A stretch of 64,000 bases of DNA from an uncultured Bacilli bacterium (lineage in GTDB: Bacteria; Bacillota_I; Bacilli_A; RF39; UBA660): the NCBI GenBank assembly GCA_934102255.1, contig CAKOSN010000001.1:41459-105458 (forward strand), in the 5' to 3' direction. The position numbers are program-made. Below are positions 57,001-63,000 of the stretch, piece by piece (position 1 is the first letter of the stretch; every line of letters begins with the position of its first letter).

Positions 57001-60000
57001 TCAACTATTTCATCTAAGTCAATCCCATTTACTTTATCAAGTTCTATTGTTAAAAAATTATAGTTATTTTCTTTATGATAGCAAACGTCAGTAACAATTA
57101 TTTCTTTAGAAGATAATGCTTCTTCAACGTTTTTTCTTAATTTTTCTAACTCTTTTTCCATATTACCTCTTTTAAGGTTTATTACTAATGAGTATTTTTT
57201 ATTCGTTAGTAATACCCCACTGTTTTTTTATAAAATTAAAAGTGGGAATTTTACTGCCCACTCAAATCTGTAATTTTATTATAGCATAATTCCTGGTATT
57301 TTCAATATTTTTAGCTAAGTTTTTAGGCCCTCAAGAAATTTTTATCAATACTTTGAAGAATATTTTAATTTATATTTTATACTTAGTAAATTTTAAGGGT
57401 AAATAAAGACTTTTTCATAGAATATGCAACTCTATGAAAGCTATATATTAGTACTTTATTCTTAATTTATATATTGAATATAACATATTTTTTCGATTAT
57501 TTAAAGGTTAAAATAGATTTAATTATGGTCAAAATTGTAGTCAAATAAATTTATTATTAATCTAAGTAATTATAGGGCTTTATAAAGTATTTTATAGTCA
57601 ACTAATCTTATTTAATTGTAGTCAAAATTCATAGTCAAGTTTTAATTATACCTAGGTGAATACTGGGTTGGAGCGCTATTTTTCATAGAGTTGCATACTC
57701 TATGAAAACGAAATTTGATACTTTTAGGAGTTATGGTTATGAAGAAAAGATGTTTTATAGTTTTAATGGCTGTATTTATTTTAATAATTGGTAATGTATT
57801 CTTGATAAATTATAATAAGAAGAATTCTTTAATAGGTGTATATCTTGATAATGTAGAAAGTACTTTTTTTCCTGATAAAAATTCTAATTATGTTGTTGAT
57901 AAAGTTGTTTGTGATAATGATGCTTTAGCTTCTTGGGATAATAATAACTGGAGCTTATTTGTTGATAATATTTCAAAAAGAAGTAATTGTAAAATTTATT
58001 TTCGTTCTAAAAAAGATATTACTATTACGTATGATAATAATTACATAAAGAATAATATTTTTGAAGATATATATAACACATCTCATTTAATTATCAATGA
58101 TACAACTGGTTCGTATTCTAAATATATTACATATAAAATAAATAAAGAAAATGGAATTGCGATAACTTTGAACAATCAGATTGGTGAATATGAAGCAACC
58201 AAATTTTCAGGTGTATATTTTAATTATAAAAATACCGCTTTAACTCCTAATAAAGTCTATACTTTTTATTTTGAAGCCAAAGGTAGTGAAAACCTTAGTA
58301 TAGAAATCGGCAGTGAGCAAACTAAAAATAGGATGGTAGAATTAACTGATATATGGCAGAAATTTAGAATTCATTTTACTGCATCTCTCACCTCAAATAG
58401 AGCCTTTATAATATATGGTTGGGTATCTCCTTCTATTAGCAGGACTATTGAACTTAAAAATCTTTCTCTTCAGGAAGGAGAATATAATAATTTTTCAACT
58501 ACTAGTTTAAAAGAATACGATACTTTAAACAGCACACTACCTACTCCAACTAGAGATAATTATACTTTTTTAGGCTGGTATACAGACCCCATTGAAGGTG
58601 AAAAAATATCATCTGAAACACAAGTTACAGAAGATACAACTTTCTATGCACATTGGCAATATAATGAATAATTTTTTAATAGCCACTTACAGAAAAAAGT
58701 GGTTTTTTTAGTGTCAAATTTGGTACTTTTCATAGAGTTTAATACTCTATGAAAGCGTATTTTAAGTACCTATTTATAATTTATACATTAAATATATCAC
58801 ACATTTAGTGGTTTTAAAAGCAAATTTTTAAATCTATTATAGTCATTTTTGTAGTCAAATATTTTTTCCTTAACTGCAGTATTTATAGAACTTTATAAAG
58901 ATATTTGTAGTCAACAAAGTTAACTCTATTGTGGTCAAAATTTATAGTCAGCTTACCAAAAAGCTAATTAAACACTGGTTTTAAGGGCCATTTTTCATAG
59001 AGTATTAAACTCTACGAAGCCGTATTTTCGGTACTTTGGAGGTATATCTATGAAAAAAGCAGTAAATGATTTAATAATATCATTAATCATTATTATTTCA
59101 ATTTTTATATATTTAATTAATAAGAAAGATTATTTATCAACAGATGATATTTTAGGTGTATATGTAAATGACGAGTTAACTGATAAAATTCCTTCTAAAG
59201 ATGAAGCATTATTTCAAAAAGTTGTTTGCGATGATGAAAATGTAAAAGCGACTTGGGATAATGATAGTTGGGGATTGTTAATAAGTAATATGAATACAAA
59301 AGTAAAATGTAATTTATATTTTTATTCCGGACCAACTGCGTTTGATTTTGATTATAATGGAGATGAGCAAATTTTTACAGTACCGGTTTCTGGAACGTAT
59401 AAATTAGAGACGTGGGGAGCTCAAGGTGGAACAATGTCATCTGATATATATGGCGGATACGGTGGCTATTCAAGTGGTGTTATCATATTACATAAAGATA
59501 TTAATTTATATATTAATAATGGTGGTCAAGGCAAAATTGGAATCGCTGGTTATAATGGCGGCGGCAATGCTTCTTCTAACGGAGGAACAGGTGGAGGTGG
59601 CGCTAGTGATATAACTTTGTCATCTGGCACACTATCAACATTTAGCAATAAATTGTCGGAAATAATAATAGTATCTGGCGGTGGAGGTGGTTCAGCCCAA
59701 CATACTGAATTAAATAACAGTGGTTCTGGAGGACACGCTGGCGGTTACATTGGTGGTAACGGTTATTTTGGAACATGGACAACAAAAGCAGGATACGGTG
59801 GAACTCAAAGTACTGGTGGTTCATATGGATTATGTAAAGATGAAACTGTATGTGGAGAAAATGGCAGTTTTGGACAAGGAGGAAATCTTATTGAATGTGA
59901 TACAACACACTGTAATAACGCATGGCAAGCCGGTGGTGGTGCTGGATTTTATGGTGGCGGTAGCTCTAGACATTCCGGCGGTGGTGGCGGTTCTGGATAT

Positions 60001-63000
60001 ATAGGAAATCAACTTTTAACAAATAAAGTTATGTATTGTTATAATTGTGAAGAATCATCTGAAGAAAGTACAAAGACAATTTCAACCACTTGTGTCGAAG
60101 AAACTCCAACTAGTAATTGCGCTAAAAAAGGAAACGGTTATACTAGAATAACATTAGTCAGTATAAATGAATAAATGCTTGCTCTTAATTGAGTAAGCCT
60201 TTTTACAATATGCACACTGTCTAATTTTTTTATAAAAAAATCAAGATTTTCATAGAACATATTACTCTATGAAAGCGAAAATCGAACGTCTATTTTTAAT
60301 TTATATATTAACTATATCACAGTTTTAAGCCATTTAAAAGATGATTTGTATTATAGTTTATAGTCATTTTTATGGTCAATTAAATTAAAAGAAAGCCCAG
60401 TATTTATAAGGCTTCACATAGAATTTCATGGTCAATTATCTTAGTTCTATTGTGGTCAAAATTTATAGTCAATGTTTTATAAACCCAGGTGAATACTGAC
60501 TTTAAAGCCGATTTTTCATAGAGTAATATGCTCTATGAAAGCGTAATTACGGACTTTTTAGAGGTATGGCTATGAAAAGAATAAAATTTTGTTTAATTTT
60601 AACATTAATCATTATTAGTTCAATTTTTATATATTTAATTAATAAGAAAGAATATTTATCAACAGATGATATTTTAGGTGTATATATAAATGACGAACTA
60701 AGTGATAAAATTCCAGCTAAAGATGAGGCATTGTTTCAAAAATCTATATGTGATGATGAAAATGTAAAAGTAACTTGGGATAATGATAATTGGGGTTTAT
60801 TAATAAGTAATTTAAATAAGAAAGTAAAGTGTAATTTATATTTTTATTCTGGAAAGACGGTATTTGATTTTGATTATACAGGAGGAGAACAAACTTTTAT
60901 TGCCCCAGTTTCTGGAACCTATAAACTTGAAACCTGGGGTGCCCAAGGCAATGCTAGCTGGAACGGTCAGGGAGGTTATGGCGGTTACTCCAATGGAAAT
61001 ATTAAGTTAACTGCCGATAATGAAATTTTTATTAATGTTGGTAGCAGTGGAGCAAGTGGTGCTTATAATAATTATTTGCCAAATGTAAGTAGTTCGCTTA
61101 AAGGTGGCGGTGCTACACATATAGCCAGTGTTTCTGGAAATTTATATTTATTGTCTGGTTATATTTCTGATATTTTTATTATCTCTGGTGGCGGCGGTGC
61201 TGGCGAAAGAGAAAATGGTGGCTCCGGTGGCGGATATATAGGTGGCTCTGGTTATCCAATAAAAAATACTCATCCATATTTTGCCACAGGTGGCACACAA
61301 ACTAACGGCGGTACTGGCTTTGAAGTCAGTGAAAATTTGAAGGTTTACAGTTTAAATGGAAGTTTTGGAACAGGTGGCAATGGTAAAAGTAGTAATGATA
61401 GTGGACCTTGTGGCGGCAGTGGTTTATATGGCGGTGGTGCAACTACAGTTGCTGGTGGGGCTGGCGGCGGTTCTGGCTATATTGGCAATCCAATTTTAAA
61501 AGACAAAGTCATGTATTGCTATAACTGTGAAGAATCTACTGAAGAAAGTACCAAAACTATATCAACTACTTGTAGTGAAGAAACACCGACTAGTAACTGT
61601 GCTAAAAAAGGCAATGGCTATGCTAGAATTACTCTAATAAGCATAGAAAATTAAAAAAAGAAGCTTTCACTTCCCTATTCAAAAAACTTATCCATAGTAA
61701 CACCTAATACTACTGATATGCGATATAAAGTATCAATCGAGCAACCTATTGCTCCTTTTTTAAATTCCAATCTTCTCATAAAATCATAAGATTTACCAAC
61801 ATCCACAGCTAGTTGTTCCTGTGTTATACCAGCAATTCTACGGTATTTTTTTATATTAGATGATACTTTTACCATTATATTTTCATCAAACTTAAATTCT
61901 CTTTTAAATGTTGTCATCTAAATATATTCTCCTTTAAATATATTTTCTTATTTTACAAACCCATTATATATAGTTTGAGTTTCTCTTAAAGTTATAAAAG
62001 CTTTTTCATCTATCTTCTTTATTAAGTTAGTTAATTCTTTTATATTTTTATTTTTAACTTCCATAAGTAGTAACTTTTTTTCTTTATTATCATAAGTATC
62101 ATAAACATCTATAGTTGTAACTCCATAACCTGATTTTCTAATTTTATCTAAGTTAGCTTTACTTGCTTTACTAGTAATTACTTGAACAGAAGTATTACCT
62201 TTTATAGCTTTTCTACTTAGGGTAGTTCCTATATAAGTTCCTGTTGCATATCCTAATGAATAACTAATTGGTACTAACACACTAGTTAAAGGTGTATTTA
62301 AGGCACTTCTAGCTACATAATACCAAATAAAAACTTCAAAAAAAGCAAGAACAGACGCTGCAAACTTTTCACCTTTTACAGAAATTACTGTTCTTACTGT
62401 TCCAATACTTACATCAAGTATTCTTCCGAAAAAAATTTTTACACATACTAGAAGTGTTGCCATAAAAAAGTCCTATCTATGGATAAGTGCAACTCCTATT
62501 ATAAAGGCAATTAGTAATACTATTGCTATTACAAATACAGCATATCCTATTATATTAGTATTACTTTTTTCTTCATTTTTATTCATTATATTTTTACTAC
62601 GAATAGCATCTAATCTATCCATATAAGCATTATTATTATTCTTTAACCCTTTTCTTATCTCTAATTGTCTACTATCCATCATAGCTCCACAGTTTGGACA
62701 TAAAGCACTATTGGAAGATAAGGCATGTCCACATTTTTTACAATTATACATATTATCACCAATTCAATCGTATCATAAACATAATAATTTTACTAGATAT
62801 TAAATTTTATATTTAATTACTATAGATACTATTTCTAACAAAACATAAATATAACATGTTTATAAATAATAATATTTCAGGGTGGGTGGTTGTGGGAAGT
62901 AATAATAATCTTCTAAACTAATCTATACTATCTTCAATAAAAGTCTTAGACTTATGAGGTTCATCTCTTAATAAATCAAGATAATCCTGTTGTCTTAAAG

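Follow-up and report, generated by a model that had tools for sequence, protein, structure and literature searches.

In Escherichia coli, the invertible promoter fimS is flipped by the tyrosine recombinases FimB and FimE, whose output depends on its orientation; fimS exists as one switch only, has 9-bp repeats and depends on IHF and Lrp. Cre-loxP and FLP-FRT use sites in which palindromic arms surround an asymmetric spacer of 7-8 bp that sets the orientation, and pairs with the same spacer recombine. In Clostridioides difficile, the inverted repeats vary between switches, and no common cassette is known. The RecV switches of this species include flgB, cwpV, cmrRST and pdcB (PMC7446863, PMC8844915, PMC9286219), some of which, e.g. 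flgB, act after transcription initiation through Rho (PMC7446863). Bacteroides invertons, associated with Mpi and Tsr recombinases, have been surveyed with PhaseFinder and DeepInverton (PMC11602134, PMC11892184). Mycoplasma penetrans possesses one invertible promoter, flipped by a tyrosine recombinase, for each gene of its mpl (P35) lipoprotein family, as stated in PMC8593674 with reference to Horino 2003 and 2009. Here, a stretch of 64,000 nucleotides (nt) from an uncultured Bacilli bacterium of the lineage RF39 (contig CAKOSN010000001.1, positions 41,459 to 105,458), in the following termed the window, was analyzed. At 57400-61660 it carries an array of three plus-strand genes for predicted surface proteins; the rest of the window is transcribed on the minus strand, and the GC skew changes sign at the array. 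Very probably, each of these genes is governed by its own invertible promoter cassette (inverton) that is flipped by a tyrosine recombinase encoded in trans.

The three cassettes (57395-57745, 58710-59055 and 60230-60575) align over about 340 nt from a distal palindrome to the start codon. An earlier, sequence-only reading of this stretch had described them as near-identical, which is borne out in extent but overstated in degree, as pairwise identities amount to about 70-75%. That reading had overlooked a second, proximal palindrome in each cassette, the 7-nt center of which is the reverse complement of the distal one. Each cassette contains two 27-nt sites at a distance of 266-268 nt, of which the proximal one lies 31-32 nt upstream of the start codon. 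The sites follow the pattern TTTCATAGAG-N7-CTCTATGAAA, in which palindromic arms of 10 nt each enclose an asymmetric spacer of 7 nt. Within each pair the proximal spacer is the reverse complement of the distal spacer, and the three cassettes differ from each other (TATGCAA, TTTAATA and CATATTA). In the window this pattern occurs six times, exclusively at the array and as three inverted pairs, compared to 0.04 expected occurrences. The sites exhibit the features of a tyrosine recombinase core site, namely inverted arms and an asymmetric overlap of 6-8 bp that is identical in the partners, and the anatomy matches two lox/FRT-like sites placed in inverted orientation to each other. The segment between the sites harbors five direct T[AG]T[AG]GTCAA (TAGTCAA) repeats placed behind a promoter. 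An Rfam scan gave only three matches, all of them far below the gathering scores.

In the proposed mechanism, the two inverted core sites would flank a segment of about 240 nt with an outward promoter of the sigma-A type, and a tyrosine recombinase of the Tn916/Tn1549 Int type, encoded in trans, would recombine the paired sites and thereby flip the segment. In the ON orientation, the promoter would read via the proximal site into the ribosome-binding site (RBS) and the gene, while it would point away from the gene in the OFF orientation. Because the two spacers of a pair correspond to each other and different pairs have different spacers, the switches would act as independent units, and any combination of paralogs could be displayed. 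The sequence-only reading had proposed a phase-variable (contingency) surface family with switchable expression, and the presence of one switchable cassette per gene supports this view. Its additional suggestion of recombination among cassettes is not upheld, since switching would consist of an inversion of about 240 nt inside each cassette and neighboring cassettes carry different spacers.

A scan for the site pattern in one genome per species yielded at least 109 loci, and with loci added later, 130 related loci were available in addition to the window (L-numbers denote related loci or contigs and P-numbers proteins of this analysis). The listed loci stem mostly from human gut metagenome-assembled genomes (MAGs) of uncultured Bacilli (Hadza), Mycoplasma sp. 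CAG:956 and Tenericutes UMGS735, with many loci per genome; the Mycoplasma sp. CAG:956-like Bacilli are presumably RF39. Among the matches listed, 79 site pairs are 252-268 nt apart, and their spacers are exact reverse complements in all but one case (78/79). At least 30 different spacers occur among the listed pairs, with a probability of 0.048 that two random switches share one. The site-to-site distances among the matches listed are bimodal (252-255 and 262-268 nt, none at 256-261), and the two classes lie one helical turn apart. A profile built from the three window cassettes retrieved about 75 switches, and individual genomes contain at least 10-15 copies of the cassette. Adjacent switches differ in their spacer in 12 of 13 cases; as about 95% would be expected to differ by chance, this is no evidence of selection. 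At L018, two tandem paralogous switches (8-296 and 1893-2181) have GTTAAAA as their common spacer and show opposite states, which represents the one case of neighbors without distinct spacers among the listed loci. The switch at L102:3893-4400, which carries the spacer CATATTA of window switch 3 and precedes an open reading frame (ORF) of only 70 amino acids (aa), is probably a decayed array member. The other switch-controlled proteins fall into at least three classes, all N-terminally anchored and 450-680 aa in length (GLUG-like, DUF6273-like and without Pfam match). Some switches possess a second gene on the promoter-facing side that encodes a membrane-anchored serpin (L048 and L105; Pfam 2e-46) or a prepilin-like N_methyl protein (L062). 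Such switches would select one of two genes instead of turning a gene ON or OFF.

Homologous switches have inverted in nature. The flanks of L018:1893 and L109 are collinear, and the global alignment score rises from 43 to 250 if the inner segment is flipped. A systematic comparison revealed further orthologous pairs with collinear flanks and inverted inner segment (L017/L070, L070/L086, L033/L103 and L035/L080) as well as paralogous cases. In addition, L125 and L128 share a recombinase-side flank with 98.8% identity, while their inner segments are 55% identical as they stand and 96% identical after flipping. At the level of the family, both orientations between unchanged flanks are hence found in five orthologous pairs and in the recombinase-adjacent switch described below. 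At least 12 contig ends are located no more than 60 nt from a site, which would be expected if both orientations coexist in the samples.

The orientation of the switches can be read from a conserved promoter motif. All 50 distinct switches among the listed loci contain TTTAAA-N16/17-TRTGnTAnnnT on the outward strand, 36-38 nt from the same end, while the opposite strand matches the motif in merely two of 50 cases and at unrelated positions. This motif corresponds to a textbook Firmicute extended -10 promoter of the sigma-A type. Of 47 switches to which a gene can be assigned, 37 have their promoter directed away from the gene behind the RBS-bearing flank and six have it facing that gene; the remaining four have genes on both sides. 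In the six flipped switches, the promoter precedes the proximal site by about 45 nt and reads across it to the RBS. The sequence-only reading had assigned the same promoter region to all three paralogs; the promoter motif is indeed conserved, but in the window it is directed away from each gene on the minus strand (Table 1). As all three promoters aim away, genes 1-3 would be OFF in the majority of the sequenced population, and the window state is thus probably OFF, OFF, OFF. An outside promoter would find no space in switches 2 and 3, given the terminators of the preceding genes. If the window switches are flipped in silico, 5' untranslated regions (UTRs) of 87-89 nt result, in which the site palindrome is lengthened to a hairpin of 20-30 bp ending just before the RBS. 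The roughly 20 nt to the right of both sites (57440-57460 and 57708-57730, with equivalents in switches 2 and 3) are direct repeats of family D3. Pairing of these flanking 'X' sequences across the proximal site after the flip accounts for the 47-nt direct repeat D3. The predicted hairpin of the ON-state UTR may serve as a stabilizer or as an attenuator.

The inversion could also be real with opposite polarity, so that the window orientation is ON by virtue of an unrecognized rightward promoter, e.g. a TATAGT box in the TAGTCAA repeats, and the flipped state is OFF, for instance through termination at the 5'-UTR hairpin. A prevalence of the window orientation in 37 of 47 switches would be natural if that state were ON, TATAGT is indeed present within the repeats, and under the favored polarity a long hairpin with U3-U5 behind it is expected directly in front of the RBS. 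However, the outward motif is the sole element conserved in both position and sequence (50/50), whereas the rightward -10 candidates have no conserved -35 element or TG. Moreover, a serpin or recombinase gene is situated on the promoter-facing side of some switches, and a large variable family that is mostly OFF matches other phase-variable families. A reversed polarity is consequently unlikely.

Several side observations concern the targets of the outward promoters. The promoter of switch 1 in its putative OFF state aims toward the minus-strand rimP-nusA-ylxR-infB operon (57161-57413), which has a near-consensus promoter of its own (57305..57278) and leader hairpins at about 57190-57260. Those of switches 2 and 3 are antisense to the 3' end of the upstream paralog (58671-58760 and 60174-60280, respectively). 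The intervening terminators contain no U-tract on the minus strand, so that antisense RNA from an OFF switch might enter the neighboring gene.

A candidate for the flipping enzyme is found next to switches of relatives. At L002, a gene for a 355-aa tyrosine recombinase (Phage_integrase and Phage_int_SAM_3 domains) starts 178 nt from a switch, and all nine metagenome contigs with enough upstream sequence have a switch about 185-220 nt in front of the recombinase gene. These nine contigs represent two orthogroups (97-98% and 79-80% identical). The short recombinase-bearing contigs L117 and L118 begin exactly at a site. The recombinase-adjacent switch (3551-3840) exists in both states, with its promoter facing the recombinase in L125, L126 and L130 and a 665-aa surface protein in L128 and L129. 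A terminator-like hairpin (GACTTGT...ACAAGTC, then T6) separates this switch from the recombinase start. An orientation-dependent expression of the putative invertase is possible but uncertain. The recombinase belongs to a family of more than 7400 clusters, its closest solved relative is Tn1549 Int, and its arm-binding domain gave only a sub-threshold match to the Tn916 Integrase_DNA family (E value 0.083). Homologs with 32-38% identity occur in two Clostridia MAGs of about 49% GC, where they are located within (L026) or beside (L087) site pairs. The sites in question (L026:3906-5396 and L087:5125-5385) have the same arms, TTCATAGAG/CTCTATGAA, and matched spacers; at L026, the matched pair TAAACCC/GGGTTTA surrounds the recombinase gene itself. 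TAGTCAA repeats are absent near the Clostridia sites, which indicates that an association with these repeats is not a general trait of the recombinase family.

Considering its adjacency to the switches and its relationship to Tn1549 Int, this tyrosine recombinase is probably the invertase. Alternatively, the sites might be substrates of a serine invertase, a Xer-type recombinase or some other enzyme, with the Int-like gene as a bystander. The role of the Int-like protein is that of a candidate, XerC/D-like genes are encoded in some loci (L079 and L036), and one close ortholog of the Int-like protein (P0016) has no site nearby. The adjacency of Int-like gene and switch, however, recurs in two orthogroups and, with the same arms, in distant Clostridia. 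No serine recombinase motif of the YxRVSTxxQ type was detected in the ORFs of the window or of the 109 listed loci by a search at the level of regular expressions. A system of the serine DNA invertase type (Hin/Gin/Mpi) was rejected on these grounds and because the matched center of 7 nt suits the overlap of a tyrosine recombinase and not the 2-bp crossover of a serine enzyme. We regard the involvement of another enzyme as improbable.

A more far-reaching scenario can be envisaged, in which one domesticated integrase of the Tn916/Tn1549 type serves dozens of orthogonal cassettes per genome that are kept independent by the at least 30 spacers. The recombinase would assemble on the TAGTCAA repeats as arm-type sites with helical phasing. 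As the cassette upstream of the recombinase occurs in both states, the population would toggle between switching-competent and locked cells. In its entirety this scenario is tentative and rather less than an even prospect.

Several points weigh against the invertible-promoter model. In switch 2, one arm of the proximal site carries a mismatch. The three window switches have the same orientation in all four assemblies of the locus, i.e. the window, L111 and L112 (both 100% identical) and L110 (97.8%), which are consensus assemblies; inversion at the window locus is thus deduced by homology and not observed. The P0284/P0285 orthologs, checked for such an inversion, belong to a different array and show the same state. 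A recombinase is not encoded in the 64-kb window according to Pfam searches of 16 ORFs, regular expressions for tyrosine and serine recombinase motifs and tblastn with three recombinases. The close recombinase ortholog P0016 (74% identical) is surrounded by housekeeping genes, and no site is present within 6 kb of it. The assignment of ON and OFF rests on promoter motifs, and the ON-state hairpin predicted for switch 3, which is followed by U5, could attenuate expression instead of permitting it. Finally, integrases of the Tn916 family tolerate heterology in the overlap; hence, matched spacers may be a consequence of repeated inversion and not a requirement for it.

The array itself consists of three tandem paralogs with an N-terminal anchor, a shared module and differing exposed domains, as had been proposed from the sequence and is now confirmed by ORFs, Pfam and alignments. 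The N-termini are transmembrane (TM) helices of the uncleaved type without Cys/lipobox (residues 2-24 in the AlphaFold2 model), followed by a module of about 65 aa with two invariant cysteines. The module had been put at roughly 90 aa; it does exist, but is closer to 65-70 aa. Proteins 1 and 2 are 32% identical across 68 aa (E value 2e-10). The module represents an unannotated family with 621 clusters at 50% identity, as revealed by an exhaustive profile search, which was needed because a word-indexed homolog search with the N-terminal module gave only 13 fragments. AlphaFold2 confidently predicts a six-stranded beta-sandwich for the module, for which a structural neighbor search gave nothing significant. 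The Listeria-Bacteroides repeat noted earlier in gene 1 was verified as Flg_new (PF09479; 1e-11, 45.2 bits, gathering cut-off 27). Likewise, the glycine-rich domain expected in genes 2 and 3 passes the gathering score of ALK_LTK_GRD (PF12810; 6e-35 and 121.9 bits for gene 2, 1e-28 and 101.3 bits for gene 3, cut-off 24.5), and the PF12810-like fold (TNF-like with polyglycine helices) for which structure prediction had been suggested is borne out by the AlphaFold2 model of gene 2 (predicted local distance difference test 86.9). This model matches ALK/LTK TG domains in Foldseek with an E value of 1e-9, with TM-scores of only 0.33-0.44. Each gene had been credited with its own terminator; hairpins follow genes 1 and 2, whereas none is located directly 3' of gene 3. 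A small protein of the XRE type (HTH_3 domain) is encoded on the minus strand at 61675-61917, convergent with the array. In related contigs, an HTH gene (L119:2689-3129 and L120:1058-1498) also flanks another three-gene glycine-rich array, the first gene of which has no switch.

Table 1. Positions of the predicted switches, genes and hairpins in the window.
Feature	Position	Strand	Details
Switch 1 distal site	57413..57439		TTTCATAGAA-TATGCAA-CTCTATGAAA
Switch 1 predicted invertible segment	57440..57680		241 nt; repeats start at 57524, 57536, 57593, 57617, 57630
Switch 1 putative promoter	57477..57505	-	TTTAAA-17-TATGtTATATT; reads through distal site, away from gene 1
Switch 1 proximal site	57681..57707		spacer TTGCATA
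Gene 1 RBS	57726-57730		AGGAG
Gene 1	57739-58671	+	310 aa; TM anchor, shared module, Flg_new repeat
Terminator-like hairpin, gene 1	58681-58704	+	
Switch 2 distal site	58728..58754		spacer TTTAATA
Switch 2 predicted invertible segment	58755..58992		repeats start at 58838, 58850, 58906, 58930, 58943
Switch 2 putative promoter	58791..58818	-	TTTAAA-16-TGTGaTATATT
Switch 2 proximal site	58993..59019		spacer TATTAAA; one outer-arm mismatch (CTCTACGAAG)
Gene 2	59050-60174	+	374 aa; TM anchor, module, ALK/LTK-type glycine-rich (TG) domain, Cys tail
Terminator-like hairpin, gene 2	60177-60198	+	
Switch 3 distal site	60248..60274		spacer CATATTA
Switch 3 predicted invertible segment	60275..60513		repeats start at 60359, 60371, 60427, 60451, 60464
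Switch 3 putative promoter	60311..60338	-	TTTAAA-16-TGTGaTATAGT
Switch 3 proximal site	60514..60540		spacer TAATATG
Gene 3	60572-61654	+	360 aa; paralog of gene 2

The relationship between genes 2 and 3 raises the question of whether variation arises mainly from homologous recombination or gene conversion among paralogs, i.e. by domain shuffling as in vsp, vlp or vls systems. The two proteins are 58% identical overall, with about 85% identity at the N-terminus and in the conserved Cys-rich tail, which had been noticed before, and a diverged middle part. In a relative with a downstream flank of about 86% identity, the contig holds two array genes and starts at the proximal site of the first one. 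Three independent assemblies break within the glycine-rich part of gene 3 (L110 at 60993, L111 and L112 at 61173), which could reflect strain heterogeneity or confusion of paralogs. These features would fit shuffling. Yet, a vsp/vlp/vls-type cassette system, the analogy drawn in the sequence-only reading, was rejected because the locus has neither a single expression site nor any silent, promoterless or partial cassettes; all three genes are complete ORFs that possess an RBS and a switch of their own. Shuffling might add diversity over evolutionary time, but would leave the paired sites unexplained, and is quite unlikely as the main source of variation.

The cassettes could furthermore be static, duplicated promoter or operator regions that do not flip, with the palindromes acting as regulator sites, e.g. 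for the neighboring HTH protein, or as RNA hairpins. Being palindromes, the sites could indeed form hairpins or be bound by dimers; an HTH_3 gene adjoins the array, and the window locus is the same in four assemblies. An operator or hairpin, however, needs no reverse-complement center about 265 nt away, as present in 78 of 79 pairs with 30 variants, and static regions are at odds with homologous switches that are inverted between collinear flanks and with promoters that aim away from the genes. Invariance across strains, which had been named beforehand as evidence against switching, holds in part for the window's own switches, but is clearly violated by homologous switches in relatives, and the gene copy number differs in a relative. 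Static cassettes are thus highly improbable. Least probable of all is a mobile element resembling a miniature inverted-repeat transposable element (MITE) with terminal inverted repeats and outward promoter that inserted independently in either orientation, since the many copies per genome, the stereotyped length, the terminal inverted repeats and both orientations relative to genes would agree with it, but transposed copies would have identical termini instead of pair-specific and always matched repeat centers, orthologous loci retain flanks and spacer while the inner segment inverts, and the associated enzyme is a tyrosine recombinase in chromosomal context and not a transposase.

The hosts of these promoter cassettes, Mycoplasma sp. 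CAG:956-like Bacilli, are prevalent, uncultured and genome-reduced members of the human gut microbiota. The recurrent cassette provides a read-countable handle on surface variation in any metagenome, and invertible switches would account for the assembly fragmentation at these loci. The proteins under cassette control are poorly annotated (ALK-type glycine-rich, GLUG, DUF6273 and Flg_new proteins and, on some switches, a membrane serpin or a pilin-like protein). If true, the toggling between competent and locked states would constitute a second heritable layer over a combinatorial surface code in genome-reduced gut bacteria. The clean sites with about 30 natural spacers and the compact 355-aa recombinase could also supply orthogonal inversion switches for synthetic biology, provided that spacer specificity is confirmed. 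No report linking RF39 with phase variation was found in the literature searched, and the main text of PMC11602134 mentions no case from RF39 or Tenericutes.

By analogy with the published descriptions, the logic of the system is that of the mpl promoter inversions (cited in PMC8593674), the RecV switches (PMC7446863) and the Bacteroides invertons (PMC11602134, PMC11892184). As in the mpl system, the locus would combine arrays of a large surface protein family, a short invertible promoter for each gene, a tyrosine recombinase acting in trans and combinatorial ON/OFF expression, and the host is again genome-reduced and Mollicutes-like. Unlike the mpl products, the proteins are TM-anchored and have no lipobox, i.e. 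they are not lipoproteins. The present switches also differ in their 27-nt lox-like palindromes, pair-specific spacers, segments of about 240 nt with five internal repeats and the Tn1549-Int-like candidate recombinase. With the RecV system of C. difficile, they share a Firmicute host and several short intergenic segments for surface or signaling genes that are inverted, or in the present case would be inverted, by a single tyrosine recombinase, whereas here one cassette with identical arms has been copied at least 10-15 times per genome. Like the Bacteroides invertons, they are promoter inversions upstream of surface structures that were detected in metagenomes of gut commensals, but they belong to another phylum and use other repeats, and the Bacteroides invertase is either a serine (Mpi) or a local tyrosine recombinase (Tsr).

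The palindromic arms and asymmetric spacer are reminiscent of Cre-loxP, FLP-FRT and engineered heterospecific lox sites. In contrast to the engineered lox variants, the family described here has 30 natural spacers and accessory repeats inside the segment, and the requirement for spacer identity is putative. In common with fimS, a switch directly upstream of a recombinase gene was found in both states, while many switches are present instead of one and a terminator-like hairpin lies between switch and recombinase. Taken together, what distinguishes this system is a portable, stereotyped cassette with perfect lox-like arms and pair-specific spacers, internal direct repeats, a helical-phase constraint, a switch-adjacent integrase of the Tn1549 type and the host clade in which it occurs.

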